From: Candidatus Fraserbacteria bacterium
GTDB taxonomy: Bacteria; Bipolaricaulota; Bipolaricaulia; RBG-16-55-9
Reading direction: 5' to 3'
Assembly (NCBI GenBank): GCA_037442925.1
Contig: JBBIPG010000032.1
Location: forward strand, 1-26,951
Length of the DNA stretch: 26,951 bases
In this document: piece after piece, positions 4,748 to 23,002 of the stretch
Layout: every line of letters begins with the position of its first letter
Numbering within the stretch: the stretch's first letter is position 1
Translations under genes and position numbers: made by a program
Notes under the pieces: model-generated
What the model was told of the DNA's origin: nothing
The model's database searches: none
The model's input: the letters and a program-made list of their open reading frames with translations, nothing else

Positions 4748-5274
4748 TGCTGGGCCCCTCCCCGCAACGGAAATGTGCCCCCAACATCATAAAAGACGGT
4801 GAGTGATGTGGTGCCGATCTGGATGCCCACGCGAGCACGGCCCACAACGCGAAGCTGACTCTGGCCAGATGCGCGAGCTTCTTGGAACATCCGAGCTCGG
4901 TTCTCCCAGAGGACAGCCAAGAGGGGAACGGCTTGCTCGCCCTTGGGAGGGACCGGGATCTGGCCTTCTGTGATGGAAGGGGCACCGGCGTATTCTTCGC
5001 CAACGAAGAGCTGCGTGTTGAGGGCTTCGACGTTCATGGTAAGATCAGAGACGTTGCGGAAGATCGCCTCAAAGTGCAACGTGACTTTCTCTTCGGTCTC
5101 CTCCGTTTGCACCCAGAACAGCTTCACATCGACATCATCGAGACTCTCGATAAAGTGCAGATAACGGATTTCGGTATCCGCGAGGAGAAGCGCCGTAATC
5201 AGAGTGATAAGCAGCGCTCCCAGCCAGAAAATCCTCGGCAGGAAGTTGTGCGCTGTCGCATCGCTAGACTTCAT
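4744..5274 (-). CDS. Membrane-anchored LEA_2/WHy-like beta-sandwich protein
   Basis: N-terminal TM helix, then a beta-rich domain (VTLHFEAIFRNVSDLTMNVEALNTQLFVGEEYAG...IPVPPKGEQAVPL) reminiscent of LEA_2. ATG 5274 is preferred over the track start at 5310 because it overlaps oppF less. Confidence 0.65.
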   Translation of the reverse strand: MKSSDATAHNFLPRIFWLGALLITLITALLLADTEIRYLHFIESLDDVDVKLFWVQTEETEEKVTLHFEAIFRNVSDLTMNVEALNTQLFVGEEYAGAPSITEGQIPVPPKGEQAVPLLAVLWENRARMFQEARASGQSQLRVVGRARVGIQIGTTSLTVFYDVGGTFPLRGGAQQ

Positions 5275-6253
5275 AACACGCCACGTAGTGTCCTCCTCCT
5301 TTGTCTTCAAGAGGAGGATGATCGTGAGTGTTGCAATGTTCCGTGGCTATAGGACAACGATCGTAGAAGCGGCAGCGCGGCTTGGGATCGATGGGGCTGG
5401 GCACATCGCCCTTAAGCTGTATGGGCTGACGCTTCAGCGTAGGGTCCGGGATGGGCACAGCCGATATCAGCGCCTGCGTGTAGGGGTGTAAGGGGGATTG
5501 AATCACGTCTTCTGTGGGACCCATTTCGACGATCTTGCCCAGATACATCACGGCGATCCGGTCGCACATGTAACGCGCCACGGCGAGATCGTGTGTGATG
5601 TATAAGTAACTGATGCTGAACTCCTTCTGGAGGTCCTTCATCAGCTTCATCACGCCGGTGCGAATGGAGACGTCCAACATGGAAGTCGGCTCATCGGCCA
5701 CGATGAAACGCGGATTGATGATCATGGCGCGCGCAATGGCCACCCTCTGGCGTTGACCTCCGGAAAGCTCATGTGGGTAGCGGAAGAGAAAGCTCTCCGC
5801 CGGTGCTAGGCCGACCATCTCCAGCATCTCCGCCACACGGACTTCCCGTTCCATCACAGTCCCGATCCGCTGGACTTTCAGAGGTTCCGCCACGATGTCA
5901 AAGATCGTGAGTCTTGGGTTCAGTGATTCATAGGGGTCTTGGAAGATCATCTGGACTTGACGATGGAATTGCTTCAGCCCCAGAGCGGGAATGGTGGCGA
6001 TATCGCGACCATTCAGATACATGCGTCCACTGGTGGGCACAAGCAGACGAACCAGCAGCTTGCCGGTGGTCGTCTTGCCACACCCCGACTCGCCCACGAG
6101 CCCGAGCGTGTCGTCAGCCTGAATCTCAAAGCTGACGTCGTCGACGGCGTGGATGAAGGACCTGCTTCGACGAAAGAGGCCCTTCTCCACCGGGAACAGC
6201 TTCCGCAGGTTTTGCACGCGGATGAGCTGCTCGGCGGCCACTCTAGTTGTCAT
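5264..6253 (-). CDS. oppF: Peptide/nickel ABC transporter ATP-binding subunit (OppF/DppF-type)
   Basis: Walker A GESGCGKT, signature LSGGQRQR, Walker B FIVADEPTSMLDVS, C-terminal oligo_HPY domain with CRFYDRC..C..C. ATG 6253 follows AAGGTGA; the track start is 6280. Confidence 0.93.
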   Translation of the reverse strand: MTTRVAAEQLIRVQNLRKLFPVEKGLFRRSRSFIHAVDDVSFEIQADDTLGLVGESGCGKTTTGKLLVRLLVPTSGRMYLNGRDIATIPALGLKQFHRQVQMIFQDPYESLNPRLTIFDIVAEPLKVQRIGTVMEREVRVAEMLEMVGLAPAESFLFRYPHELSGGQRQRVAIARAMIINPRFIVADEPTSMLDVSIRTGVMKLMKDLQKEFSISYLYITHDLAVARYMCDRIAVMYLGKIVEMGPTEDVIQSPLHPYTQALISAVPIPDPTLKRQPIQLKGDVPSPIDPKPRCRFYDRCPIATEHCNTHDHPPLEDKGGGHYVACYEV

Positions 6254-6286
6254 GAGATCACCTTGGCTCTTGACGCGCATGGTAGC

Positions 6287-7318
6287 TCACCGCTGAACCG
6301 GGTTCCAACAAGCGGCGTAGTGCTCTTCCCCAAAGAGCTGCAGTTGGGGCACTTGCTCCTGACAGATGGCCGTGGCGTGCGGGCAACGCGGGTGAAAGCG
6401 ACAGCCCGAAGGAGGCTGGAGCAAGTTGGGTGGCTCACCCGGAACGATGGTCAGCTCGTGCTTCTCCCCTCGGATGCTGGGAAACGCCGACATGAGCGCT
6501 GCCGTATACGGGTGACGCGGACGCTTGAAGATGACCTCCGTGGGGCCCATCTCTACCAGCTTGCCTGCGTACATGATGCCGACTTTGTCCGATACTTCCG
6601 CGATGACCGCGATGTCATGCGAGATGTAGATGACACTCATGTTGAGCTGATGGCGGATCTCATCTAGTTTATTGAGAATGCGATCCTGCACGATCACGTC
6701 GAGGGCTGTAGTGGGCTCATCCGCGATGATGAGACTGGGGTCGCAAGCCAACGCCATGGCGATGACGGCCCGCTGACGCATGCCCCCGCTATATTCATGT
6801 GGGTACTGGTCCATGCGGTTGGGGTTCAGACCAACCAGTTCGAAGAGTTCGGCAACTCTATTGCGTGCCTCTTGTGTGCCCACGCCGTTATGGGTCTGCA
6901 TCGCTTCCACGATCTGCTCGCTCACACGATAGACGGGATTGAGCGAGTTCATAGCCGCTTGGAAGACCATCGAGATGCCTTTCCAGCGCACCTTGCGCAT
7001 GTGCCGTTCGGGAAGCTTAAGTAAATCCACATGATCTTCCTTGATCACGCCAGCCCTCTCATACCAGCGTGCCTCTTCCTCCGGCAGCTTGAGCAGGTCT
7101 TTGCACCGATAGAAGACGTGGCCTCCGCGAATCTGAGCGTTTTCCGGCAGCAGACGCAGCAGAGTGATCGCCAGCGAGGACTTGCCACAGCCCGACTCAC
7201 CTACGAGTCCTAAAGCTTCGCCCTGTTTCAACGCCAAGGAGACTCTATCGACCGCACTGACGTCTCCCTTCTTCGTGCGGTAATGCATGGTCAAATCGCG
7301 CACTTCCAGTAAGTTCAT
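6287..7318 (-). CDS. oppD: Peptide/nickel ABC transporter ATP-binding subunit (OppD/DppD-type)
   Basis: GESGCGKS, YPHEYSGGMRQR, IIADEPTTALDV, HPYT and the CRFHPRC..C..C tail. Confidence 0.95.
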   Translation of the reverse strand: MNLLEVRDLTMHYRTKKGDVSAVDRVSLALKQGEALGLVGESGCGKSSLAITLLRLLPENAQIRGGHVFYRCKDLLKLPEEEARWYERAGVIKEDHVDLLKLPERHMRKVRWKGISMVFQAAMNSLNPVYRVSEQIVEAMQTHNGVGTQEARNRVAELFELVGLNPNRMDQYPHEYSGGMRQRAVIAMALACDPSLIIADEPTTALDVIVQDRILNKLDEIRHQLNMSVIYISHDIAVIAEVSDKVGIMYAGKLVEMGPTEVIFKRPRHPYTAALMSAFPSIRGEKHELTIVPGEPPNLLQPPSGCRFHPRCPHATAICQEQVPQLQLFGEEHYAACWNPVQR

Positions 7319-7349
7319 GAATCTTCACCCGCAACAGTGAATGGAGCGC

Positions 7350-8312
7350 TCAAATCTTTCTCAACCTGGGATTGACTATCTCATCCATGCCACGACCCAC
7401 AAAGTAGAAGGCGGCACAAAGAGCCGTAATCGAGGTCGCTGCCGGGAAGAAGAGCCACCAGTAGCGGGTGACGGCCTCTCCGGTCAGATAGCCACCGATG
7501 TTGGCCAGCTCCACCATCATACCCCAACTCATCTGGATATTGATCAAGCCGAAGAAGCTGAGAACGGCCTCTGTGAAGATCGCGTTGGTCACATTGAACA
7601 TCATGTATAAGAAGCTCAAGGGCAAGAGATTGGGGATGATGTGGGTGAAGATGATGTGGAAGCTGCTGCCACCGGAGACCTTGGCTGCCTCGATGTACGG
7701 CTTCACTTTGATCGTCAGCGCTTGAGACTTGAGCACGATGGTGATCGACCCGAATCCGTAGATGAGCCCCAGCACGACAGCCAGACTATAGAGGGTGAGA
7801 TCGAACATGGCACTCAGCACAATCAGAAAGGCAATGACCGGGAACAAGACAGCCACATCAGCCACGCGCATGAAAAACGTATCTACGAATCCCCCATAAT
7901 AGGCCGAGGCTGCCGCGATGAGGGTCCCAATGATTACGGTGATGAGCGCCGCCATAACGCCCAAGAAGAACTCGGATCGGGCACTATAGGCAAGCTGCGA
8001 GAAGACATCGCGCCCGTGTTGGTCTGTGCCCAACCAGTGCCGCGCCGATGGGGGAGCCGGATGCTGCCCTCCTTGCTGCACGACGACCGGGTCATAGCCC
8101 GAGACGGGATTGTAGATTTCATGATCCCAGATCGTGGCCATGAGAATCGGGTAAGACAGGGACAGAAGCCCATAGAACACAATAATTGCCAATCCGATCA
8201 GACCGACGCGGGATTCCTTGAAGAGTTCCCAGTTGATAGACAAGCCTCTCAGAAAGAGCCTGAGCTTCGCCCTCCAGGGTGCCTCGTAATGACGTTGCGC
8301 TATCGCTGCCAT
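7350..8312 (-). CDS. oppC: Peptide ABC transporter permease (OppC/DppC-type)
   Basis: PPSARHWLGTDQHGRDVFSQL, EAA loop YIEAAKVSGGS, HIIPNL, and C-terminal EIVNPRLR. Confidence 0.93.
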   Translation of the reverse strand: MAAIAQRHYEAPWRAKLRLFLRGLSINWELFKESRVGLIGLAIIVFYGLLSLSYPILMATIWDHEIYNPVSGYDPVVVQQGGQHPAPPSARHWLGTDQHGRDVFSQLAYSARSEFFLGVMAALITVIIGTLIAAASAYYGGFVDTFFMRVADVAVLFPVIAFLIVLSAMFDLTLYSLAVVLGLIYGFGSITIVLKSQALTIKVKPYIEAAKVSGGSSFHIIFTHIIPNLLPLSFLYMMFNVTNAIFTEAVLSFFGLINIQMSWGMMVELANIGGYLTGEAVTRYWWLFFPAATSITALCAAFYFVGRGMDEIVNPRLRKI

Positions 8313-8351
8313 GGAACTAAGTCTTTCACTCCCTCGGTTGTTCTGGGTTCA

Positions 8352-9518
8352 TTATGTGTACCGAATGCGCGGATCCAGATAGGCGTAGAGGAGGTCCGCG
8401 ATCAAGTGAGCAATGAGGGCAAATATGCCGGTGAATACAAAGGTGCCAATGGCCAGAGGAAGATCCTCCTCCACAACAGCTCGTAGCAATGTCAGCCCCA
8501 TCCCCGGCCAGGAGAAGATCGTCTCCGTGACGATGCCGCCATCTACAGCGAAGGCCAAAGACAAGACGAAGCTGGTCACCACAGGCAGCAAGGCATTGCG
8601 GGCCGCGTGCTTGTCACGCACGACTTTATCCGGCAGGCCTTTGGCCTTGGCCGCCATCACGTAATCTTCCTTGACGACGTCGAGCATGCTATCGCGCATC
8701 AAGAGCATATAACCGCCGAAGCCAATAGCCGTCAAGGCAAACGCCGGCAGGATCATGTGCCACAGGATATCTTGCGCCAAGTAGCCCATAGGATACGTAT
8801 TGAAGAGCAGATACCCCAAAGATCCAGCTGTGAGCGCAACGGCACCCACCTGGACGGAGAGACGAGCCCAGTAGGACTGAAGTAGACGCTGCGCAAACAG
8901 GTAGACACTGAACAGGACGACGAAGCCCCCTCCCCCATAGAGCAAGATGTAGTTGAAGACATCGTTCGGTGAGATGTACTTGATGAAGGGTCTCCACTTG
9001 AGCGGATCGATGAATTTCCCGATGGGAAGCCAGCCAAGTTGGAACGCGAAGATCCAGATCAGAAGCAGGCCGAACCAGGGAGTGTACACGGTCCAGAGCA
9101 CGACTCCGCTGACCGTCGCCGAGTAGTCCACGACTCCACCACGCCTCCAGGCGATCAGCTTCCCCAGCTGGAAGGCCAAGGCATAGTAGATGATCGTAGC
9201 CGTCAAGAAGAGGGCAAGCGTGCGGGGCAGACGCTCCTTGATGATCTCCCAGACGGGCTGAGGGTAATTGGTGAAGGAGAGCCCCAGGTTCCCGGTGACG
9301 ATGTTTTTCAAGTAATTCACGTATTGAATGTGCAGAGGTTGATCCAGACCCAGCCGTCGCTTCAGCGCGTCGCGGGCCTCCTGTGGGATACGGGGATTGC
9401 TGATATACACTTGCGAGATGTCACCCGGCTGCGCAGCCACGATGATGAAGACAATGGTCACATAGATGTAGAGCGTCAGAAGAATCTGAGCCACCCGCTT
9501 GATCACATATTTGCGCAT
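8352..9518 (-). CDS. oppB: Peptide ABC transporter permease (OppB/DppB-type)
   Basis: LGLDQPLHIQY, EDYVMAAKAKGL, KHAARNALLP, ETIFSWPGMG, DLLYAYLDPRIR. Confidence 0.93.
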   Translation of the reverse strand: MRKYVIKRVAQILLTLYIYVTIVFIIVAAQPGDISQVYISNPRIPQEARDALKRRLGLDQPLHIQYVNYLKNIVTGNLGLSFTNYPQPVWEIIKERLPRTLALFLTATIIYYALAFQLGKLIAWRRGGVVDYSATVSGVVLWTVYTPWFGLLLIWIFAFQLGWLPIGKFIDPLKWRPFIKYISPNDVFNYILLYGGGGFVVLFSVYLFAQRLLQSYWARLSVQVGAVALTAGSLGYLLFNTYPMGYLAQDILWHMILPAFALTAIGFGGYMLLMRDSMLDVVKEDYVMAAKAKGLPDKVVRDKHAARNALLPVVTSFVLSLAFAVDGGIVTETIFSWPGMGLTLLRAVVEEDLPLAIGTFVFTGIFALIAHLIADLLYAYLDPRIRYT

Positions 9519-9632
9519 GAAGACCTCTTCTTATGCTCTGGGCATCCTGGCCCACCCTTGCTCCTCTAGCCTAGCAAACGACAACCCCGGCGTCAATGCA
9601 GCAAGTCATGTCCTACGAACTAAAGACGGCAA

Positions 9633-9666
9633 GAGGTCCAGGAAGCACGGTCGCCTCCTGGACCTC
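9633..9666 (-). terminator. Strong intergenic hairpin after the substrate-binding protein gene (mRNA stabiliser or partial terminator)
   Basis: Perfect 11-bp inverted repeat GAGGTCCAGGA (9633-9643) / TCCTGGACCTC (9656-9666); no clear U-tract. Confidence 0.6.
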
Positions 9667-9709
9667 CGTGCCTCAACTCATCAACGTCCTTGACACGGCA
9701 ACTGACTTC

Positions 9710-11629
9710 TTACTTGCCGGCAACGAGATTCAGTTGCCCGAGGCTAAGCGAGTTCGAGAATCCACCCAGCAGCGGCTTGTCCTCAAGCCCCTGCCAGCCG
9801 ATCCTGTCGACTCGGAACGCGTCGTTTACGACTACGTGGTGTGTGGGAACATATGCCACGTAGTCGAAGACCATCTTCTGCAGCTGGAAAGCAAGATCGC
9901 GTGCCTTGTTGACGTCCGACTCGGCCAAGAACTGGAATGACAGGTCATCAAACGTGTCCTGGCAGCCGTTCAGGGCGTTCTCCCTGGCGCTACAGACTCC
10001 GCCCTGCGCGGCGTTGCCTTGTCGAGCGGCGTTGCGGCTACCGAAGAATGCCTCCAGGTAGTCTGGATAGAAGCTCAAGCTCCAGCCCAGCTGCCACATG
10101 TCGAAGTCCTGCAGGTCGAACACCAGCGTGACGATGTTGTTGAAGCCTGCGGGTACGTCCCTGACCAGCACGCCCAGCTTCTGCAGCCGGTCCACGATGT
10201 GCAGGCCGAAGATGTTGCGGTTGTTGTCGTAGGCCGCGTTGGGGTGCAAGAGTTCCAGCTGCGGGATCGGGTTGCCCTCCGGATCGGCCGTCAGAATGCC
10301 CTGGGCGTTGAATTGGAAGCCCGCGCCCGTGAGCAGCTGTTTCGCCCTGGCCAGACGATCTGCCTCACTCATTCCCTTGCAAGACTCCTGCCTTTCCGCT
10401 TCCGTCAGAGGCCGGTACCAGAACCCGTTACCCGGCGGAACTACGTTCTCCGCTACGACGACCAGGTTCTGCAAGAGTGAGCTAGCCACGAACTCCTTGT
10501 CAACGACGCAACGGACGGCCTGGCGGAACTCCAGATAGTTGAAGGGGACCTTGCGCATGTTGAAGCTGAGATAAAAGACCCCGTTATCTGCGTTGCTAAG
10601 GACCCGGACGTTGTTAGCCGCTTGCAGCTGTTGCAGGGTGGCCAGTCCATAGCCCAGCGGGTTGAAGTGGTAGTCCGCGTCGCCGCTGATGACGGCCAGA
10701 GCTGCCGCGGCCTGGCTGCCAAAGAGGTTGAAGAGCACCCCATCGACGAAGGGGCCGGTAGTGTATTCAATGAGTTGATTGCTCAGATCGCCTGCCGAGC
10801 GCTCCACGCCAGTGGGCAGTCGCTCCCAGTGGCCATCGCTACCTGTTTCCCCGTACTCCCGGTTGAGGGTGCCCTTGAAGAAGAAGTTGGGGTTGGCCGA
10901 GATCTCCGCGAAGGCTCCCGGCGTCCAGCTCTCAAACTGGAATCCCCAGGCACTTGGCTCATCCGTGCCATCGAAGGCCGACAGAGTCTGAACCGGGTTC
11001 GCGGAAGCGAACGCCTGGTTGAACTTGGGCTCCCAGTAGGCCTTCTGGAGGATGGGAGAAAGCAGGGCACCGAACTCCCAGCGGGCCAGTCCCGGCTTCT
11101 GCTTGAAGAAGAATTTGACAGTGTAGTTGCCCTGCGCTTCCACATGGTCGACGAACTCTGCATCGAACCAGGACGGGAAACCGCCACCCAGGTCGATGGA
11201 GAGCGCATTGCCCGTCGATGGGTTGGTTTTGACAAAGTTGTTGAAGGTGAAGGCCACGTCGTTGGCCGTGATCTCTGTGCCATCGCTCCACTTCACACCC
11301 TGGAGCAGGTTAACCGTGGCGACCGAGAAGCCATCCTCTTCTGTGAAGGGGCCAGCGAAGTCGGCTGCCAAGGAGGGGAATGGCGAGAAGCCTGGAACCG
11401 TCAGACCGTAGAGGGCTATGTGCTGCCAACCCCACACGTAGGCGTTCCAGATGGTGTTGTTGGCCCCGTTGTTCGTGGCGATCCAGCTGTTGCCACCCTT
11501 GAGGTCCTCATGGACGGCAGTCACGAAGATCTTCTCCGCCTGCGCACTCGCAACGCTGGTATTGAGGTTTAGGCCCATCAGGAAGGTCAGCCCCAATGCC
11601 AGTAAAACCGCAAAGCGTATCGCTTTCAT
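9710..11629 (-). CDS. ABC transporter substrate-binding protein, family 5 (OppA/DppA/NikA-like), cleavable signal peptide
   Basis: Signal peptide ending VASAQA; family-5 motifs GVKWSDGTEITANDVAFTF and YLSFNMRKVPFNYLEFRQAV; directly upstream of oppBCDF; AGGAGG RBS. Confidence 0.9.
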   Translation of the reverse strand: MKAIRFAVLLALGLTFLMGLNLNTSVASAQAEKIFVTAVHEDLKGGNSWIATNNGANNTIWNAYVWGWQHIALYGLTVPGFSPFPSLAADFAGPFTEEDGFSVATVNLLQGVKWSDGTEITANDVAFTFNNFVKTNPSTGNALSIDLGGGFPSWFDAEFVDHVEAQGNYTVKFFFKQKPGLARWEFGALLSPILQKAYWEPKFNQAFASANPVQTLSAFDGTDEPSAWGFQFESWTPGAFAEISANPNFFFKGTLNREYGETGSDGHWERLPTGVERSAGDLSNQLIEYTTGPFVDGVLFNLFGSQAAAALAVISGDADYHFNPLGYGLATLQQLQAANNVRVLSNADNGVFYLSFNMRKVPFNYLEFRQAVRCVVDKEFVASSLLQNLVVVAENVVPPGNGFWYRPLTEAERQESCKGMSEADRLARAKQLLTGAGFQFNAQGILTADPEGNPIPQLELLHPNAAYDNNRNIFGLHIVDRLQKLGVLVRDVPAGFNNIVTLVFDLQDFDMWQLGWSLSFYPDYLEAFFGSRNAARQGNAAQGGVCSARENALNGCQDTFDDLSFQFLAESDVNKARDLAFQLQKMVFDYVAYVPTHHVVVNDAFRVDRIGWQGLEDKPLLGGFSNSLSLGQLNLVAGK

Positions 11630-13205: not shown

Positions 13206-15293
13206 GTGGATCGAGCCTGGATCTTGCTGTTGGCCGTTCTAGCCTTGGCTGTAGCGGGTCTTCTCTTGTTGAGACCTGGGGCTCCTCCCGTCGAGAAGCC
13301 CACCCCCATTGAAAAGCCAGCCCCCACGCCGGAAAAGCCACAACCGGAACCACCGAAAGAACCCGAAAAACCCAAAGAGGAACCCCAGCAACCGCCCCCT
13401 CCTATGGAAGAGCCGGTATCGTCGAAACCACGACCGGAACCTTCCAACCGGACGACCCTCATCCTCGACACGATCTCCCTGCCGGAAACACTCGATCCAG
13501 CCTGGTCTTTCTTCACAGCGGACTCGGCCATCATCGAGCAGATGTACGAGCACCTGGTGGACTACAAGGGCGGCTCCCTCGGTGAGTTCATACCGGAGCT
13601 GGCTACAGAAGTCCCCACGGTGGAGAATGGCGGCATCAGCGCGGATGGCTTGACCTACACGTTCCATCTTCGTCGTGGAGTGACATTCTGGGACGGCAGT
13701 CCGTTCACCTGCGCCGACGCGGAGTACAGCTTCGAACGTGTGCTGGCCATGGATCGTGACAGCGGTCCGACCCTGATTTTGATCGATCCATTGCTGGGCA
13801 TTACCACGACCCGTGACGCGGAGGGCAATCTGATCTCGAGCGTGAGAATCGGCGGTCAAGAGAAGTCCTTGGCTCAAGCCATCGATGAGGCCATCGAGTG
13901 CAGTCCAGATGGGACGAAGATCACCTTCAAGCTCGCGCACACCTTCCCGCCCTTCCTGCAGCTGATGTCCCACTCCAGCGTCGGCTCCATCTACTCCAAG
14001 GCCTTCGCCATCGCCAATGGAGCGGCAGACAACGCCGATCCTGAGGCGTTCTTGCAGGCCACCAACGGTCCCACGGACGTGGCTTCGACAGCGCTGTTTG
14101 ACAAGGCCATGGGCACCGGACCCTTCCGGCTCCAGGTCATCGACCGAGTTGCGGAGCAGGTCATCCTCACCCGCTTTAACGGCTATTGGCAGGGACCTGC
14201 CGCGCTCGAGAATGTCATCTGGAATAACGTGCCGGAATTCAACACCCGCCTGCTGCGCCTGGCTGCCGGGGACGCCGACATCAGTTACATCTCCACTCGT
14301 GCTCAGACCCAGCAACTCAAAGATCAAAGACCTGCCGGTGTCCGCCTGATCGAGTTCCTCCCCGGCTTTGTCACCGAATCCTTCAACCTCAACAAAGATA
14401 TTCAAGTCCAAGCCGGCAGTGAGTTCGTGGGCAGCGGTAAGTGCGATGGCAACGGCATCCCGCCCGACTTCTTCGCAGACATCCACGTGCGCAAGGCCTT
14501 TGCCCACTCCTTCAGCCAGGAACAGTTCATCTCGGACTTCCTGCTGGGCGCCGGTGTTGTGGCCGCCACACCCATACCACCCAACGTGGAGTTCTTTGAT
14601 CCCGAGGTCCAGGCGATCCCCTTCGACCTCAACGCCGCGGAGCGGGAGTTCAAACAGGCCCGCTGCACTGGCAGTGACCAGTCCGTCTGGGAGACGGGTT
14701 TTAAGTTGATTGCCACCTACAACGCTGGCAACGCTCGGCGTCAGGCCGCCCTGCAACAACTGGAGTTCTACATCGAGAGCCTAAACGCGAAGCGCCCAGG
14801 TCTACCGCCCTTCGATATCATCATCCGCGATGTGCCCGGCTCGATCTTCTTCAATCCTAACCAGCAGCGGATCACGCCGATCTTCGTGGGCGGCTGGAGC
14901 CCGGACTTCATCGACATCGACAATTGGATCCGTCAGTGGATGGATGCCCAGGCGGGCACCTTCGGAGCCGTGACCGGCCTGAGTGCCCTGGGCGAGAAGA
15001 CGCAGGAGTGGATCAAGCTGCTCAACGAGGGCATCACCACCGTGGACAAGAAGCGCCGCCAAGAGATCTACTCCCAGCTGCAGCGCGACTATGTGGAGTA
15101 CGCCGTCGCGATCACCCTGCCCACGCGCACTCTCGATGTCGTGGAGCGCAGCTGGGTGGACGGCAACTACTACAACCCCGGTGAAGGCGATCCTCAGGAG
15201 CCACCGAACGTCTACGCGCTCAGCAAGAGGGCAGATGGAAAGCCAAAGATGGAGGAGCTAGCACCCTATAGCCCCACGGTCACAGAGTTCTAA
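13206..15293 (+). CDS. ABC transporter substrate-binding protein, family 5 (DppA-like), with N-terminal TM anchor and Pro/Glu/Lys-rich stalk
   Basis: PETLDPA, MYEHLV, TYTFHLRRGVTFWDGSPFTCADAEYSFER, MGTGPFRL, DIHVRKAFAHSF, GWSPDF. Confidence 0.93.
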   Translation: MDRAWILLLAVLALAVAGLLLLRPGAPPVEKPTPIEKPAPTPEKPQPEPPKEPEKPKEEPQQPPPPMEEPVSSKPRPEPSNRTTLILDTISLPETLDPAWSFFTADSAIIEQMYEHLVDYKGGSLGEFIPELATEVPTVENGGISADGLTYTFHLRRGVTFWDGSPFTCADAEYSFERVLAMDRDSGPTLILIDPLLGITTTRDAEGNLISSVRIGGQEKSLAQAIDEAIECSPDGTKITFKLAHTFPPFLQLMSHSSVGSIYSKAFAIANGAADNADPEAFLQATNGPTDVASTALFDKAMGTGPFRLQVIDRVAEQVILTRFNGYWQGPAALENVIWNNVPEFNTRLLRLAAGDADISYISTRAQTQQLKDQRPAGVRLIEFLPGFVTESFNLNKDIQVQAGSEFVGSGKCDGNGIPPDFFADIHVRKAFAHSFSQEQFISDFLLGAGVVAATPIPPNVEFFDPEVQAIPFDLNAAEREFKQARCTGSDQSVWETGFKLIATYNAGNARRQAALQQLEFYIESLNAKRPGLPPFDIIIRDVPGSIFFNPNQQRITPIFVGGWSPDFIDIDNWIRQWMDAQAGTFGAVTGLSALGEKTQEWIKLLNEGITTVDKKRRQEIYSQLQRDYVEYAVAITLPTRTLDVVERSWVDGNYYNPGEGDPQEPPNVYALSKRADGKPKMEELAPYSPTVTEF

Positions 15294-15303
15294 TCCAGAG
15301 GGT

Positions 15304-16338
15304 ATGCTTGCGTTCATCGTTCGCCGACTGCTGCTTCTGCCCGTTGTGGTTTTCATTTCCACACTCTTGATCTTCACCCTCATGCAACTCTTACCACCCA
15401 GCGTCCGAGTTGCCCTCTACGCTAAAGAGAATCCCCGAGCGTGGAATGACATCAACGACCTGATCCGCATTCACGGCCTCGATCAGCCCATCTATGTGCA
15501 GTATTGGAATTGGATTAAGGGAATCTCCCAGGGAAACCTCGGCTGGTCCTATTCGGCTCAGATGCCCGTTGCCAAAGCCTTGCAGAGCTACCTGCCAGCC
15601 ACGATCGAGCTGACGCTCATGTCCATCATCCCCCTCGTCATAGGGGGCATCTGGCTGGGGACCAAATCCGCTGTCTATCATAACCGAGTGCCCGATCACA
15701 TCACACGCCTCATGTCGATCACCGGCTGGTCACTGCCTACGTTTGTCGCGGGTCTGATCTTGCTCATGGTCTTCTATGGCTACTTGCGCTGGTTGCAGCC
15801 GGGCCGACTCAGCACAGAGGTGAAGCTCATTGTAAGCAACCCGCAGCTGTTTACCCCCTATTCGGGCATGTACACCGTGGATGCGCTTCTCAACGGCCCC
15901 AATTGGGTTGTCTTTTGGGATGCGATCAAGCACCTGATCCTGCCCGCTATTACCCTGGCCTATGTGAGCTGGGCGCTCATCGTACGGATCATGAGAAGCA
16001 GCATGCTCAACGTGTTGCGCGAAGACTACATCATGGTGGCGCGAGCTAAGGGCCTAGAAGAGAGAGCCGTCATCAACAAACACGCACGGCGCAATGCGCT
16101 GATCCCGGTGATCACGGTCTCGGCCATCGTGGTGGGGCTCTTGCTCGGGGGCGTGGTCATCACGGAGACCATCTTCAATTACTTTGGGGTGGGCTGGTGG
16201 TTCGTTCGAGCTGCCACGCAACTGGACTTCCCCGCGGTGCTCGGCTTTACGATCTTTAACAGCATTCTCTGGGTACTCGTGAATCTCGGCGTAGACGTGC
16301 TCTACTCCTACATCGACCCGCGTGTGAGGTTGACGTGA
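15304..16338 (+). CDS. oppB: Peptide ABC transporter permease (OppB/DppB-type); its stop codon is supplied by the IS right end
   Basis: HGLDQPIYVQY, EDYIMVARAKGL, KHARRNALIP, DVLYSYIDPRVRLT. Confidence 0.95.
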   Translation: MLAFIVRRLLLLPVVVFISTLLIFTLMQLLPPSVRVALYAKENPRAWNDINDLIRIHGLDQPIYVQYWNWIKGISQGNLGWSYSAQMPVAKALQSYLPATIELTLMSIIPLVIGGIWLGTKSAVYHNRVPDHITRLMSITGWSLPTFVAGLILLMVFYGYLRWLQPGRLSTEVKLIVSNPQLFTPYSGMYTVDALLNGPNWVVFWDAIKHLILPAITLAYVSWALIVRIMRSSMLNVLREDYIMVARAKGLEERAVINKHARRNALIPVITVSAIVVGLLLGGVVITETIFNYFGVGWWFVRAATQLDFPAVLGFTIFNSILWVLVNLGVDVLYSYIDPRVRLT

Positions 16339-16430
16339 CACTCTGCGGCGACTAAAGTCGCGCAGCTTCTCGCCGAAGCGAGCAACTTGCCGGGTGTCCG
16401 CCGGAACTACTGCGCCAAGGGCGCAGATAC
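16315..16430 (-). ncRNA. Predicted TnpB omegaRNA (3' scaffold plus flank-derived guide GTCAACCTCACACGCGGGTC); 5' boundary not determined
   Basis: Structured 3' region overlapping the end of tnpB: CTCGC-TTCG-GCGAG tetraloop hairpin (16382-16369), right-end hairpin, TCAC, then the host flank 16334-16315, as established for IS605 reRNAs. Confidence 0.75.
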
Positions 16431-17527
16431 GTGATGGAGCGTGGAAGATGGCTAACCGGAAGCAAGCGACCGTGAACGCCGATCTGCAAGATGTTCGTGG
16501 CTCCCACAACGTCACGCGGGGCGACTACGCCACACTCACAGCGATATATCCTTCCCTGCTTGCTTCTCCGCCCGCATACGGGACACGTCTGCGAGCTGTA
16601 AGGCTCATCAACTTCAATGGCTCCAGTCGTCTTGTAGTTGAGAAGCCAGATGATCTTGGCATTACACGCTTGACTTACTTGTTGAGCTTGTTGTCTACGA
16701 ATGCCTTGCGATGCATCATTGAACGGCCTTCCAGCGTAGCACTTTGCGTTGGGGAAGGCATTGGCAATCTGGCGCGTGGCCTTGTGCACGATGTCGTTGA
16801 GGCGATGGCGGTTCTTCGCCAGTATCTTGGCTTTGCGACGTTGCAAGCACCTCCACCGACGCGAACCCTTCGCCATGCGGGACTGCTTGGCGCTAATACT
16901 AGCCAAGAGCTTGTTTCTAAGACGAATAACAGACTTAGCCGCACGCCCACTGACAAGGACAGCCTTCTCACCATCGCTGGCCGCGATCAGCGTATTGACA
17001 CCGAGGTCAATTCCGATGGTTCGCTCCACAGCTTGAACTGTATCGGCAACTTCGCTGACGATCAGGACGCGCCCAAAGCACAGACGGGCTTCGATCAGAC
17101 GGCCAGGAAGCTCAACCGGAATCCGTATGCGCAGCTTACCACTCTTGCCACTGGGCAGTGTCAAGATGCCGTCTTTGAGCCGAGCCGCTTGATTGGTGTA
17201 GATGACATCGCGGTACTTGGGCTTGCGCCAAGGGTAGCGCATATGGGCTTGGCCCTGTTTGCGCAGCCGCTTGATGGCTTGAACGGCCTCGCAAAACTCA
17301 GCGATAATCTGTTGAGCAGACTGCGAGTGCAACCCCGGATACTTGCGTTTGGCCCACTTTTGCCAGCGTTCCTTGGTGGGCCATCTCCAGTCGGCAGATC
17401 GGATTCGGTGATGTCGCTCAACCAAGTCCCCCCAGAGCCTAGCAGCCTCTTGGCGAGAGGCTGTGAACGTCTGCCATTGGGTTTGGTTACGCGGCATCCA
17501 GGCAATCTCTATCTTACGATAACTCAC
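16352..17527 (-). CDS. tnpB: RNA-guided endonuclease TnpB with rearranged RuvC-II, about 391 aa from GTG 17527
   Basis: RuvC-I IGIDLG, KGSRRW, HKATRQI, VDEPYSSQTCPVCG...YRCECG zinc finger, RuvC-III RDVVGATNI. The track start at 17575 lies upstream of the element's own promoter, so GTG 17527 is preferred. Confidence 0.95.
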   Translation of the reverse strand: MSYRKIEIAWMPRNQTQWQTFTASRQEAARLWGDLVERHHRIRSADWRWPTKERWQKWAKRKYPGLHSQSAQQIIAEFCEAVQAIKRLRKQGQAHMRYPWRKPKYRDVIYTNQAARLKDGILTLPSGKSGKLRIRIPVELPGRLIEARLCFGRVLIVSEVADTVQAVERTIGIDLGVNTLIAASDGEKAVLVSGRAAKSVIRLRNKLLASISAKQSRMAKGSRRWRCLQRRKAKILAKNRHRLNDIVHKATRQIANAFPNAKCYAGRPFNDASQGIRRQQAQQVSQACNAKIIWLLNYKTTGAIEVDEPYSSQTCPVCGRRSKQGRIYRCECGVVAPRDVVGATNILQIGVHGRLLPVSHLPRSITYLRPWRSSSGGHPASCSLRREAARL

Positions 17528-17533
17528 ACTAGC

Positions 17534-17562
17534 AGTGTAGCTTTTGACACGCTGAAAGTCAA
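17534..17562 (-). promoter_or_regulatory. tnpB promoter (leaderless transcript)
   Basis: TTGACT (17562-17557), 17 nt, TACACT (17539-17534), 6 nt, in-frame GTG at 17527. Confidence 0.75.
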
Positions 17563-17628
17563 AGGGGCGCTTCATCTACAGGGGTTAAAACCCCGTAGCT
17601 TTCGCTCCGGAAGGATTCTGTAATCGTT

Positions 17629-18726
17629 ATGCGCAAACCTCACCCGGAGCCCCCAGGAAGTCCGGCAAGAGCGGAGATCCAAGTCACGGAAGTTCAGAGT
17701 CCCATAGTGCCTCCAGAGGGAGGTCCTCTACCTTCCGGCGAATGGCAGAAATTCAAAGGCGCTCAGTCGACCTGGTGGCCAGGGCTTGTGAAACAGACGA
17801 AGCGCTTCCTGCACAACCCGCTGTCCTGCACGGGGATCATCTTGATCCTCTTCTTCGCCCTGGTTGCCGTTTTCGCCCCTTGGCTTGCTCCGCCTGACCG
17901 CCCTCGCGAACCATACCGCATGCCACGCGACGGATTCGCCTTGCAACCTCGCCCTCCGCAAGCGGACGCTTGGCAGACCTTCCCACCCGACTGGCACAAG
18001 CACCCCTTCGGAACCATGGAGGGCCAGTACGACATCTATTATGGCATCGTCTGGGGGGCTCGCAACGCCTTTCGCATCGGCGTTGCAGTAGTCGGAATTG
18101 CCGTTGTCATCGGCATCATCGTGGGTAGCCTCTCCGGATACTTTGGCGGCTGGATCGACCAGTTGCTCATGCGCCTTGTAGATATCTTGCTCTCGTTTCC
18201 CACGATCATTTTGGCTATCGTCTTGGTCACGGTCTTGACGAACCCTGGCGTGAAACTCTTTGGGATGTCGTTTGATCGGCTTACGGCTCTCATCATCGCC
18301 TTCACGTTCACACAGTGGCTGTCCTATGCCCGTCTTGTCCGCGGGGACATCTTGTCCGTGAAGGAGAAGGAGTTCACCCAAGCGGCCCAGGCCATCGGTG
18401 CAGGCCACCTGCGCATTATCATCAAGCACATTCTCCCCAACTCGATTTATCCGGTGCTGATTGCCGCCTCCTTGGATATTGGCTCCGTCGTACTATCCGT
18501 GGCTGCGCTGAGCTTCTTGGGATTGGGGCCAGGAACGGACTTTGCCGACTGGGGCCAGATCATCAGCTACTCGCGCGAGTGGATCTTGGGAGCACATGGC
18601 AATCCCTTCCATTACTGGTATGTGATCATCATTCCCAGTGCGGCCATCACGCTCTTCGTGCTGGCCTGGAATTTGCTGGGGGATGCCTTCCGAGATATTC
18701 TCGATCCCAAGCTGAAGGGTCGGTAA
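17629..18726 (+). CDS. oppC: Peptide ABC transporter permease (OppC/DppC-type)
   Basis: HPFGTMEGQYDIYYGIVWGAR, GYFGGWIDQLLMRLVD, EFTQAAQAIGA, HILPN, NLLGDAFRDILDPK. Confidence 0.93.
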   Translation: MRKPHPEPPGSPARAEIQVTEVQSPIVPPEGGPLPSGEWQKFKGAQSTWWPGLVKQTKRFLHNPLSCTGIILILFFALVAVFAPWLAPPDRPREPYRMPRDGFALQPRPPQADAWQTFPPDWHKHPFGTMEGQYDIYYGIVWGARNAFRIGVAVVGIAVVIGIIVGSLSGYFGGWIDQLLMRLVDILLSFPTIILAIVLVTVLTNPGVKLFGMSFDRLTALIIAFTFTQWLSYARLVRGDILSVKEKEFTQAAQAIGAGHLRIIIKHILPNSIYPVLIAASLDIGSVVLSVAALSFLGLGPGTDFADWGQIISYSREWILGAHGNPFHYWYVIIIPSAAITLFVLAWNLLGDAFRDILDPKLKGR

Positions 18727-18741
18727 CTGAGCTGTAGTTTG

Positions 18742-18783
18742 ATGTCGGTTCACGTGGCCGACATTCGAGAGTCCTGCTATCAT
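18742..18783 (+). promoter_or_regulatory. Inverted repeat plus extended -10 upstream of the third substrate-binding gene
   Basis: ATGTCGG...CCGACAT inverted repeat (18742-18764); TGcTATCAT (18775-18783); GGGAGGTG RBS before ATG 18810. Confidence 0.5.
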
Positions 18784-18809
18784 TTCATGAGCAAAGGGAG
18801 GTGTTACCT

Positions 18810-20879
18810 ATGAATGGTAACAGTAATATTCTGCTGATCATCCTAGCGATCGCTGCCGTGGTGGTCCTGGGATTTCTCGCCTTGAAGCCTTCCGCTCCAC
18901 CCGCAACGCCTGAGCAACCGACCCCCGTGGAAAAACCCGCCAAACCGGAAAAACCGACAGAACCACAAAAACCACAAGAAGAGCCACCAGCACCGAGTGA
19001 ACAGCCGACCACGCCCCAGAAACCCGAACAGCCACAACAGCCGACCGTGCAACCCCTGACCGGCTCCATCAAGAACCCCGATACGCTGATCGTTGCGGAT
19101 CTAAGCGATATCGATACTCTCGATCCGCAGTTCGCCTATGATACAGCCAGCGGCGAGATCATCTTCCACGTGTACGACAACTTGATCATGTACGACGGCC
19201 CAAGCACTGAGAAATTCTTGCCCATGCTCGCCACACAGGTCCCCAGCCTCGAGAATGGACTCATCACAGAAAACCCTGATGGCTCGGTCGTCATTCGCTT
19301 TCCCATCCGTCAGGGCATCAAATTCCATAACGGCAATGCTCTCACACCGGAGGATGTCGCCTACAGCTTCCAGCGGCTGATGCTCATGGACCGCAGCGGT
19401 GGCCCAAGCTGGCTGGTGCTCAATCCTCTTCTCAATGTCAACACCATCGCCGACATGGCCAAGGTGATCGAGGCCGAGCGCACAGGCCAGAATGCCGACG
19501 AGATCGACTTTCAAGCCGTGAGCCCTGAGACACTGGTCGCAACCTGCGAGCGCGTCAAACAGGCAGTGCGCGTCAACGGCAATGACGTGGAGTTCTCCCT
19601 GCCGAAGCCCTTCCCGCCCTTTCTGTCCATCGTGGCCCAAAGTGCAAGCTGGGCCGCGATCATCGACAAAGAATGGGCGACCGAACAAGGCGCATGGGAT
19701 GGAAGCTGCGATACCTGGAAAGCACACTACGACCCCCAGAAGGAGAATGACCCCCTCTACGAGAAGATGAACGGCACGGGTCCCTTCATGCTGGAGCGCT
19801 GGGATCACGCCACAGGAGATATCTCGCTCGTGCGCAACGACAACTATTGGCGCGGCCCGGCCAAGCTGGCCCGCATCGTCATCAAGAAGGTCAACGAGTT
19901 CAGTACCCGCAAACTGATGCTTCAAAACGGCGACGCGGATATCGCCGCCATCAATAGAAAATTCGTCGACCAAGTCGACGGCACACCGGGTGTGCGGCTC
20001 ATCAAGGGTCAACTGCGCATGACCTTGGGCTTCGTCCTGTTCAACCAGAAGATCACCAAGGAGGGCAACCCCTATATTGGCAGCGGCCAGCTTGACGGTA
20101 ACGGCATCCCTCCTGACTTCTTCAGCGACATCGACGTGCGCAAGGGTTTTAACTATGCGTTCGACTGGGAGACCTTCATCCGCGAGGCCATCAAGAATGA
20201 AGCCGAACAAGCCAAAGGACCCATCCCGCGAGGAGTTCAGTTCTTCAACCCGGAAAATCCCGTCTATCACCTGGATCTAAAGAAGGCCGAAGAGCACTTC
20301 AAGCGAGCCTGGGATGGTCAGCTCTGGCAGAAGGGATTTAAATTTACAGCTCCCTATCTGGTAGACGACCAAGCCTCCAAGACCCTCTTTGAAATACTGA
20401 AGCGCAACCTCCAGAAGCTCAATCCCAAGTTCGACATCGAAACCGTCAATCTCGAATGGTCCGCTCTGCTTGGCCAAAGCGTGAAGGGAACTCTGCCCGT
20501 CTACTCCGCCGGATGGCTGGAGGACTATCACGATGCGCACAACTGGGTCTTCCCGCTCATGCATAGCCAAGGGACCTACGCAACCGCCACGAACATGGGG
20601 ACCCAGTACGATGCCCTCATTGACCGAGGCATCAAGGAGCTGGACCCGACAAAACGCCAAGAGATCTACTACGAACTGCAGCGTCTGGCCTATGAAGATG
20701 CTATCGCCATCTTCACCGATCAACCGTTGGGACGCCACTACCAGCAACGCTGGGTGGACGGCTACTACTTCAACCCCATCTGGCCGGGGCGCAATTTCTA
20801 CCCCCTGTCCAAACGACTCGATGCCAAGCCCTATATGGAGTACGTCACCCAACTCGGCTTGGTCGTCGAAGAATGGTGA
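18810..20879 (+). CDS. ABC transporter substrate-binding protein, family 5 (DppA-like), TM anchor plus Pro/Glu/Lys/Gln stalk; paralog of 13206-15293
   Basis: IDTLDPQFAYDTAS, IRQGIKFHNGNALTPEDVAYSFQR, MNGTGPFML, GSGQLDGNGIPPDFFSDIDVRKGF (shared with the paralog). ATG 18810 follows GGAGGTG. Confidence 0.93.
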   Translation: MNGNSNILLIILAIAAVVVLGFLALKPSAPPATPEQPTPVEKPAKPEKPTEPQKPQEEPPAPSEQPTTPQKPEQPQQPTVQPLTGSIKNPDTLIVADLSDIDTLDPQFAYDTASGEIIFHVYDNLIMYDGPSTEKFLPMLATQVPSLENGLITENPDGSVVIRFPIRQGIKFHNGNALTPEDVAYSFQRLMLMDRSGGPSWLVLNPLLNVNTIADMAKVIEAERTGQNADEIDFQAVSPETLVATCERVKQAVRVNGNDVEFSLPKPFPPFLSIVAQSASWAAIIDKEWATEQGAWDGSCDTWKAHYDPQKENDPLYEKMNGTGPFMLERWDHATGDISLVRNDNYWRGPAKLARIVIKKVNEFSTRKLMLQNGDADIAAINRKFVDQVDGTPGVRLIKGQLRMTLGFVLFNQKITKEGNPYIGSGQLDGNGIPPDFFSDIDVRKGFNYAFDWETFIREAIKNEAEQAKGPIPRGVQFFNPENPVYHLDLKKAEEHFKRAWDGQLWQKGFKFTAPYLVDDQASKTLFEILKRNLQKLNPKFDIETVNLEWSALLGQSVKGTLPVYSAGWLEDYHDAHNWVFPLMHSQGTYATATNMGTQYDALIDRGIKELDPTKRQEIYYELQRLAYEDAIAIFTDQPLGRHYQQRWVDGYYFNPIWPGRNFYPLSKRLDAKPYMEYVTQLGLVVEEW

Positions 20880-20885
20880 TGTGGT

Positions 20886-20913
20886 GTAGGGGTACGACAT
20901 GCCGTACCCCTAC
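20886..20913. repeat. GTAG-type REP-like palindrome
   Basis: GTAGGGGTACG-ACATGC-CGTACCCCTAC, a perfect 11-bp stem bounded by GTAG/CTAC, intergenic. Confidence 0.75.
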
Positions 20914-20921
20914 GGATCGCC

Positions 20922-21986
20922 ATGCTCGCCTACATTGCGCGCCGCCTGATGTTCCTGCCCATCATCCTCTTTGGGGTCACGGTGCTGCTCTTCGCGATGC
21001 TCCAGCTTCTCGATCCCTATGAGAGGCTTTCGCTGTATGTGAGAGACCCATCCCAACTGCGCGGCGGTAAAGAGCAGCTCGATCGGCTGATCGAAAAATA
21101 CGGACTCGCCGACCCTCTTTATCTCCAATACGGCCGTTGGGTGAGTAAATTCGTTCAAGGCGATTTCGGATGGTCGGAGACGGCCAAGACCACAGTACTC
21201 AATGGCTTTCTCGGCCGCTTCCCTGCCACCGTGGAGTTGACGCTCTTCGCCATTGGCCCGATTCTCTTCTTTGCCATCTGGTTGGGAGTGATCTCAGCTG
21301 TTCATCACAATCGCTGGATTGACCAGCTCACTCGGGTCATCACCATCTTGGGATACTCGCTGCCGAGCTTCGTGCTCGGGCTGGTCCTGCTGATGGCTTT
21401 CTATGGCTTGCTCTCTCGGCATCTGCCCCCGCTGTTCAGTGGCTGGTTCTCCCCAGGACGCCTGAGCGAATGGGCCCAGCAGATCGTCAGCAGCGAGGGC
21501 TTTCACGCTTACACAAGACTGGTCACGGTGGATGCCCTTCTCAATGGCCAATGGCGCGTCTTCTGGGATGCAGTGGGACATCTCATCTTGCCGGTGATGA
21601 CGCTTTCCTACGTCAACTGGGCGGGGTTTCTGCGCATCATGCGCTCCTCGATGTTAGAGACCCTACGACAAGACTACGTGACGACGGCGCGCGCCAAGGG
21701 AGTCGAAGAACGTCGGGTGATCAAGAAACATGCCCGTCGCAACGCGCTGATCCCCATTGTCACGCTGTCGGGTTTCTTGGTTGTGGGTCTGCTCAGCGGT
21801 GTGGTCATCACGGAGACGATCTTCGGTTATCCGGGGTTGGGTCAATGGGCAGCGCAAGCGGCACTCCAACTGGATGTGCCCTCCGTCTTGGGATTGCTCA
21901 CGTTCGTCACGATTCTCTTCATCGTCGTCAATCTGATCGTCGATCTGCTCTACGCGGTGGTGGACCCGCGGGTCAGGCTGACATGA
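20922..21986 (+). CDS. oppB: Peptide ABC transporter permease (OppB/DppB-type)
   Basis: QDYVTTARAKGV, KHARRNALIP, ETIFGYPGLG, DLLYAVVDPRVRLT. Confidence 0.95.
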   Translation: MLAYIARRLMFLPIILFGVTVLLFAMLQLLDPYERLSLYVRDPSQLRGGKEQLDRLIEKYGLADPLYLQYGRWVSKFVQGDFGWSETAKTTVLNGFLGRFPATVELTLFAIGPILFFAIWLGVISAVHHNRWIDQLTRVITILGYSLPSFVLGLVLLMAFYGLLSRHLPPLFSGWFSPGRLSEWAQQIVSSEGFHAYTRLVTVDALLNGQWRVFWDAVGHLILPVMTLSYVNWAGFLRIMRSSMLETLRQDYVTTARAKGVEERRVIKKHARRNALIPIVTLSGFLVVGLLSGVVITETIFGYPGLGQWAAQAALQLDVPSVLGLLTFVTILFIVVNLIVDLLYAVVDPRVRLT

Positions 21987-23002
21987 ACGCAGCCCGAACG
22001 CCCGCTGCCTTGTGGGCGGCGCTTCAATGGACAACCCAACGCCTACTAGATGCCGTAATGGCCTTCATGCGGGCATTGTGGGACACGCTGAAGCAGCTTC
22101 TTAGAAACCCGCTCTCCACCATCGGGCTCTTGCTCTTGGTCTTCTATGCTCTCATTGCACTGCTGGCTCCCGTACTGGCGCCGCCGGAACGGCCCGCGGC
22201 TCCGTACCAGATCCCTCAGCGGGAGATCGTCCGCCCCTTTCAAGCCCCTCAAGGCAAAGACGTCTTCGAGACGACACCGACGCCTCCCAGTGCCCATCAC
22301 GTCTTGGGAACCACCCAAGACCACTACGATATTTATTACGCTCTCATCTGGGGAGCCCGCAATGCCTTTAAGCTGGGCATCATCATTGTGCTGAGCACGC
22401 TGCTGATCGGGATCGTCGTGGGCGCTATCTCGGCTTACTTTGGCGGCTGGGTGGATGAGATCTTAATGAGAATCGTCGAGATCTTCTTAGTATTCCCGTT
22501 CTTGCTGGCTACGCTTGTGCTGACCACGATTCTGGGCCGAGGGCTCGACAAGATCGTGATTGCGTTCATCGTCTTCGGTTGGCCCGGATATGCCCGCTTT
22601 GTGCGCGGGGAAGTGTTGCACGTGAAAGAGAACACCTATGTCGAGGCCGCGCGGGCGGCGGGCGCGGGCAATCTGCGCGTCATCTTTCGGCATGTGCTTC
22701 CCAACGCGATTTACCCCGTGCTCGTGCTGGCATCACTGGATATCGGCAGCATTGTGCTGTCGGCCTCGGCGCTCTCGTTCTTGGGGTTGATCCCGGAAGG
22801 CTTCGCTGACTGGGGACAGCTGATCGGCTTTTCCCGCAACTGGATCTTAGGGACAGTTCAAAACCCCCTCGAATACTGGTACACGATCGTCTATCCGGGG
22901 CTGGCCATCTCTTTGTTTGTCTTGGGTTGGAACTTGCTCGGCGATGCCGTCCGAGACATCTTCGATCCTAGACTGCGAGGAGCCCGCAGCCGATCCTCCT
23001 AA
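21983..23002 (+). CDS. oppC: Peptide ABC transporter permease (OppC/DppC-type), 339 aa
   Basis: ATG 21983 overlaps the oppB TGA (ATGA); HHVLGTTQDHYDIYYALIWGAR, YVEAARAAGA, HVLPN, NLLGDAVRDIFDPR. The track ORF (start 21470) is over-extended. Confidence 0.93.
   Translation: MNAARTPAALWAALQWTTQRLLDAVMAFMRALWDTLKQLLRNPLSTIGLLLLVFYALIALLAPVLAPPERPAAPYQIPQREIVRPFQAPQGKDVFETTPTPPSAHHVLGTTQDHYDIYYALIWGARNAFKLGIIIVLSTLLIGIVVGAISAYFGGWVDEILMRIVEIFLVFPFLLATLVLTTILGRGLDKIVIAFIVFGWPGYARFVRGEVLHVKENTYVEAARAAGAGNLRVIFRHVLPNAIYPVLVLASLDIGSIVLSASALSFLGLIPEGFADWGQLIGFSRNWILGTVQNPLEYWYTIVYPGLAISLFVLGWNLLGDAVRDIFDPRLRGARSRSS

Follow-up and report, generated by a model that had tools for sequence, protein, structure and literature searches.

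TnpB nucleases in which the catalytic glutamate of RuvC-II has changed place were described in several recent papers. According to Altae-Tran et al. (2023; PMC10691335), two major clades as well as eight large branches show RuvC-II rearrangements. In RIIr-5, the largest group, Gly takes the place of Glu, an alternative Glu faces the active site from a loop, and the proteins are mobile. Jiang et al. (2023; PMC10530073) named the class TnpB2 and reported that the E467A change abolishes cleavage by Fanzor2. They also described TvTnpB from Thermoplasma volcanium (IS605, alternative Glu E323), which cuts DNA using TGAC as its TAM and shows no collateral activity. TvTnpB is the one prokaryotic IS605 member of the rearranged class assayed in the papers cited here, where the effect of the rearrangement on specificity is raised as a question. 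Yoon et al. (2023; PMC10711439) divided the alternative-Glu proteins into a DPG clade that includes the Fanzors and a D-hydrophobic-G clade. The solved catalytic triad of Fanzor2 includes E467 and D501, and its RNA is pseudoknotted (PMC11832414). In a 2026 preprint (10.64898/2026.06.23.733943), moving the Glu back in Fanzor2 is reported to result in gain of trans-cleavage and reduced cis-cleavage.

Since the rearranged site already appears in three 2023 papers and one structure, the TnpB described here adds a member to this class and not a concept. It was found in a contig of 26,951 nucleotides from a Candidatus Fraserbacteria bacterium (the window), and it quite probably is an active RNA-guided nuclease with a predicted TTAC/CTAC TAM. 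With a protein of 391 aa, known ends, a predicted TAM, an RNA backed by covariation and a natural empty site, it represents a ready test case.

The TnpB protein and its RuvC-II site

The longest tnpB open reading frame spans 16352..17575 on the minus strand (407 aa; residue numbers below refer to it). It passed the NCBIfam TnpB model NF040570 with 117.6 bits (cut-off 100) and contains Pfam domains PF01385 and PF07282. The coding sequence itself is likely 16352..17527 (-), starting with GTG at 17527 (residue 17), because 92 of 120 aligned relatives start at this residue. These close relatives are the best 120 of 1022 clusters that reached E 1e-10 or better; their identity to the window protein is 56-76%. 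A sigma-70-like promoter at 17562-17534 (-), matching 9 of 12 consensus positions, ends 7 nt before the GTG, and similar hexamers with the same spacing, as judged by eye, precede tnpB in many relatives. A transcript from this putative promoter would likely be leaderless. The length of about 391 aa proposed in the initial annotation is thus supported by the starts of relatives and by putative promoter spacing.

The initial annotation had also proposed a rearranged RuvC-II site, and translation of the frame placed all four residues where it had put them; the stretch it flagged, 16511..17008, spans exactly Asp190 to Asp355. RuvC-I Asp190, in the DLG motif of IGIDLG (17006..17008, -), is kept in 119 of the 120 close relatives. 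Gly282 of KCYAGRP (16730..16732, -) occupies the canonical RuvC-II Glu position, and the alternative Glu324 of VDEPYSSQTC (16604..16606, -) follows 42 residues later, six residues before the zinc finger (C331). Both are present in 120 of 120 of these sequences, as is RuvC-III Asp355 of RDVVGATNI (16511..16513, -), always among the best 120 of 1022 clusters. The alignment and PF07282 place a C4 zinc finger at C331/C334/C346/C348 (16532..16585, -). By comparison, of the protein's 27 acidic residues, 13 are retained in at least 85% of the same 120 sequences and the remainder in 4-83%.

The pattern extends well beyond close relatives. D190, G282, E324 and D355 occur together in 80 of 82 loci retrieved from contigs of genomes, metagenomes and viruses, the other two being truncated. 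They are also all present in 65 of 71 distant proteins, a set defined as those of 340-500 aa among the 150 best full-library matches, and in 52 of the 56 that share less than 39% identity with the window protein. The reverse is seen in two canonical TnpBs from related genomes (L004 and L006), which have Glu where the window protein has G282 and Pro where it has E324. Another two (L005 and L009) are misregistered at the G282 column and provide no test of it. As judged from these alignments, conservation of the four residues is not due to chance. In a pairwise alignment with mimivirus Fanzor2 (chain 9b0l_P), a check proposed in advance, E324 falls on catalytic E467 and D355 on D501. D190, E324 and D355 are the predicted catalytic triad.

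A FastTree phylogeny was built from 81 sequences and 380 columns, rooted on two canonical TnpBs and excluding rows without the zinc-finger or RuvC-I motif. The subfamily of the window protein (22 sequences, support 1.0) is nested in a group of 76 proteins with Gly and alternative Glu (support 0.96), and one further protein of that kind (L010) is placed outside this group. The rearranged RuvC-II is a family-wide trait and not a rare one, and it defines one major TnpB clade; the subfamily alone has hundreds of metagenomic members. RuvC-II in the window protein and its subfamily reads G-x-P-F-N, whereas it reads G-D in 43 of the 56 distant relatives drawn from the 150 best matches. Protein P0123 (607 aa) is 56% identical over residues 16-335 and 200 aa longer, possibly owing to a fusion or a frameshift. 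At two loci (L085 2501-4113 and L086 395-2007) the tnpB match exceeds the usual length by about 400 nt, which suggests an insertion within the gene.

By residue pattern, the window protein belongs to the published class with Gly plus alternative Glu (TnpB2, RIIr-5-like). With RIIr-5, itself one of ten RuvC-II-rearranged groups, it shares both residues as described (PMC10691335). With TnpB2 and TvTnpB it shares an inert canonical RuvC-II residue and an alternative Glu about 45 residues on (42 here), and with TvTnpB also IS605-type ends and a right-end RNA, here predicted, by comparison with the published description (PMC10530073). The window element differs from that of TvTnpB in having no tnpA and in its predicted TAM, TTAC/CTAC instead of TGAC. 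The DLG at RuvC-I and a Glu six residues before the zinc finger recall the D-hydrophobic-G clade with alternative Glu, as outlined by Yoon et al. (PMC10711439), but the zinc finger is shorter here, with 11 residues between knuckles. Because it is one residue shorter, the strict pattern of those authors catches only one of the 120 close relatives (best 120 of 1022 clusters), while a loosened version catches 117 of the 120.

The AlphaFold2 model (mean pLDDT 86.8; residues 1-14, 288-294 and 389-407 below 50) places D190 in strand 185-191 and D355 at the start of helix 354-368; strand 277-282 ends with G282. E324 comes directly after strand 319-322, a secondary-structure position that fits the alternative-Glu role. 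Foldseek ranked ISDra2 TnpB, ISFba1 TnpB, Cas12f and Fanzor2 first (top matches 8H1J and 8IAZ; E 1e-13 or better), and both model and search show the WED-REC-RuvC-zinc finger fold of TnpB. ISDra2 TnpB (8H1J) shares the fold; ISDra2 has a canonical Glu and its own tnpA, unlike the window element. Fanzor2 was matched with TM 0.61 at 17% identity. The C-terminal tail is modeled with low confidence and yet is conserved, possibly because the tnpB 3' end overlaps the predicted omegaRNA and is under RNA constraint.

Ends, insertion and mobility of the element

The gene lies in a tnpB-only element of the IS200/IS605 family, 1285 bp long (16335..17619, -), whose limits were set by an empty site and by the ends of multi-copy relatives. 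It is preceded, 5' of its left end, by a TTAC target at 17620..17623 (-), which is also the predicted TAM. In a genome of the same genus (G001, locus L096) the two flanks are joined directly, with neither element nor target duplication. The permease orthologue there (81% identical) continues from the left flank into GTAA and then into the next start codon. The insertion, as judged from this comparison, postdates the split from that species. Near-identical relatives in differing flanks share sequence that runs from TTAC in three independent pairs, or from CTAC/CTAT in one, to TCAC; judged by these boundaries, they are mobile. A right end was found at 71 of 80 loci by a search pattern that required TCA (64 TCAC, 4 TCAT and 3 TCAA), nine being unmatched.

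Subterminal hairpins lie at 17576..17598 (-), where folding was compared with shuffles and similar hairpins occur upstream of relatives, and at 16343-16365. Their z scores are -1.8 and -1.9, and each was bettered by 8 of 200 shuffles. They are modest evidence alone, and it is the empty site and the multi-copy relatives that fix the ends. Insertion after TTAC without duplication, together with hairpins at both ends, is by sequence the IS200/IS605 pattern and not that of IS607, which bears out the Y1-type ends of the initial annotation. IS608 likewise targets TTAC and inserts 3' of its short target without duplication (PMC8612924), and ISDra2 also inserts 3' of a short target with no duplication.

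These ends also bear on the possibility that the window protein is an IS607 pro-Fanzor on the line leading to eukaryotic Fanzors, which we regard as scarcely credible. It shares its alternative Glu with Fanzor2 (mimivirus ApmFz2, PDB 9B0L), where E324/E467 and D355/D501 align, and both have a pseudoknotted RNA, predicted here. On the other hand, the window protein is prokaryotic, has 391 aa compared to 520, and carries DLG and not DPG at RuvC-I; DPG is found in none of the 120 close relatives (best 120 of 1022 clusters). The ends and the TTAC target are of the IS200/IS605 kind, no serine recombinase gene was found upstream of 45 relatives, and the one resolvase-family gene of the genome is on another contig. 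Assignment as a Fanzor or pro-Fanzor is largely refuted by the DLG motif, the lack of an IS607 serine recombinase partner and the bacterial 16S rRNA gene in the window. The term Fanzor-like in the initial annotation thus holds for the position of the alternative Glu and fails for RuvC-I.

DPG does occur at RuvC-I in other alternative-Glu relatives (P0124, P0135, P0152, P0163, P0169, P0189, P0196, P0206, P0211, P0223 and P0267). This motif, used as a Fanzor fingerprint, seems to have arisen more than once among alternative-Glu proteins.

Only 92 nt separate the left end from the start codon, leaving no room for a transposase. No Y1 transposase gene was found in the host genome, which is 94% complete, and the 141 reading frames checked ahead of 45 close loci included no tnpA (141 out of a total of 184, after excluding duplicates and loci with less than 700 nt upstream). 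An autonomous IS200/IS605 element was therefore rejected and the element was filed as non-autonomous. Elements that carry only tnpB are labeled IS1341-type. On an Allomeiothermus plasmid, an annotated IS200/IS605 tnpA immediately precedes a distant relative that has this Gly and Glu (L110), and no tnpA was found beside three other plasmid relatives that were fetched. Related elements also seem to be stacked in places, with TnpB-like or end-like sequence adjoining at L028 (3742 onward), L061 and L066 (upstream of 2494) and L094 (3717 onward). In L094, a viral contig, the family member at 2501-3613 adjoins a terminase large-subunit gene.

Close subfamily members were not found in other genomes of the host phylum (184 examined), and the named close relatives belong to Chloroflexota, which suggests horizontal arrival. 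The host genome has a single copy of the element and, as no Y1 transposase was found there, the element may be stranded. One may thus ask whether the class is active while this particular copy, with a drifted TnpB, is decayed or weak. Of 171 highly conserved columns, 15 differ from the family consensus in the window protein, a higher number than for any other aligned sequence (best 120 of 1022 clusters), in a set enriched in members nearer each other than to the window TnpB. The departures include R60S and R243C, and most are conservative. In addition, most TnpBs are reported to be without robust editing activity (PMC11844463). Against decay, the copy retains an intact frame, triad and zinc finger, along with its predicted promoter, its two ends and the RNA pairs. 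The insertion is younger than the split from the same-genus species, and dN/dS is low, 0.11 and 0.14 against two relatives (it is saturated against three more). We therefore consider a decayed copy unlikely, while giving it some weight, and favor an active nuclease.

The predicted omegaRNA, its guide and a proposed cycle

The last 100 nt of the element are conserved across 41 aligned sequences, taken from 61 distinct ends. They contain a predicted omegaRNA (reRNA) scaffold at 16335..16430 (-), the 5' limit of which is approximate and which overlaps the 3' end of tnpB. The covariation alignment gives hairpins at 16426-16410, 16404-16390 and 16382-16369 and the right-end hairpin at 16365-16343, and covariation also points to a pseudoknot between a loop (16398-16394) and the last bases before the end (16341-16337), all on the minus strand. 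Thirteen pairs, covering two stems and the pseudoknot, were selected by visual inspection of the alignment. Pairing holds in 99.4% of 533 cells, and 8 of the 13 show changes on both sides. None of 500 shuffles reached this pairing score, and slid controls gave 23-46%. For the pseudoknot alone, three cells show changes on both sides. The right end thus fits a structured, pseudoknotted omegaRNA as in TnpB and Fanzor2 systems. The 16S rRNA was the single RNA that Rfam identified in the window.

By its position, as in ISDra2, the predicted guide is the right flank (16315..16334, -), antisense to the 3' end of a permease gene. Judged from the insertion targets, the TAM is probably TTAC or YTAC (CTAC/TTAC). 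Apart from the empty site, no guide target was found in the host genome with 4 or fewer mismatches over 16 nt beside YTAC.

An antisense guide within a dpp/opp-type operon could suggest a nuclease-dead, RNA-guided binder of the TldR or DppD-TnpB kind, domesticated to regulate its peptide-transporter operon; examples of inactivated TnpBs within peptide ABC operons have been published (PMC10691335). The window protein retains both Asp and the strictly conserved Glu. The element has full ends, lies antisense to the operon and is missing from the site in the same-genus genome, relatives adjoin unrelated genes, and the guide merely equals the flank, with no other TAM-bearing target in the genome. 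This makes such a role very improbable. TldR and DppD-TnpB proteins, dead and immobile, were rejected as a model in view of the kept triad, the recent insertion and the varied neighbors.

An active nuclease in an element that lies between TTAC and its right flank, without duplication and without a transposase gene, could operate as follows. A Y1 TnpA acting in trans would have delivered the element by single-strand peel-and-paste, as in IS608 and ISDra2. Its 3' end would be transcribed and processed to a pseudoknotted omegaRNA ending in the flank, as covariation suggests. By analogy to TvTnpB and Fanzor2, TnpB would recognize its TAM, probably TTAC or YTAC, and cut through the alternative Glu with little collateral activity. 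Together with its own right-end guide RNA, it would likely cut transposon-free copies of the site. Repair of the break from the copy bearing the element would then result in retention of the element.

Insertion in a stop codon of a peptide-transporter operon

The element interrupts the stop codon of a DppB/OppB-like ABC permease gene (15304..16338, +), to which it is antisense. The next gene of the interrupted operon, at 17629..18726 (+), encodes a DppC/OppC-like ABC permease. Read on the plus strand, the target is G-TAA, in which TAA is the original permease stop, and the right end of the element is G-TGA, so the permease protein is unchanged by the insertion. Its stop is now the TGA at 16336-16338, provided by the element, while the G001 orthologue ends with TAA. 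The insertion adds 1285 bp and a predicted antisense promoter within the operon.

Similar stop swaps were found in relatives. Among 47 distinct related insertions with a right flank of at least 450 nt, 13 have at least 150 open codons in the frame that ends at this TGA, compared to 4 and 2 for the other two frames. Pfam matches were obtained in 8 of the 14 TGA-closed frames of at least 90 codons, 7 of them reaching the profile end, and in none of 11 control frames. Thus, 8 of the 47 have a Pfam-backed swap of TAA or TAG to TGA like that in the window, the element supplying TGA to a convergent host gene in the right flank (L001, L019, L021, L029, L038, L041, L043 and L068).

As background, 1.6% of YTAC sites overall are real stops, as are 9.4% of those that break no gene, values obtained with a crude ORF caller in the host genome of the window and not in the host of each contig. 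The 8 of 47 is higher than the first share (p 6e-7) but not clearly above the second (p 0.07). The 13 of 47 exceeds both (p 3e-4 against 9.4%), but includes unverified frames. A more elaborate view is that the tnpA-less subfamily, with its G-x-P-F-N motif and short zinc finger, could be adapted to stop codons. A YTAC target and a TCAC end each read as G plus a stop, so that TAA or TAG would become TGA, the protein would stay intact and the guide would always match the 3' end of a gene, TAM, target and end being co-selected. We hold this adaptation to be improbable; a simpler reading, compatible with the data, is that harmless sites are selected. The stop-codon swap is one way in which such elements sit harmlessly in dense operons.

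According to the open reading frames, the window contains three consecutive peptide ABC transporter sets (5264-11629, -, and 13206-23002, +), comprising three substrate-binding proteins, three permease pairs and one ATPase pair. A full-length bacterial 16S rRNA gene (57-1606) is found at the start of the contig, with protein genes directly after it.
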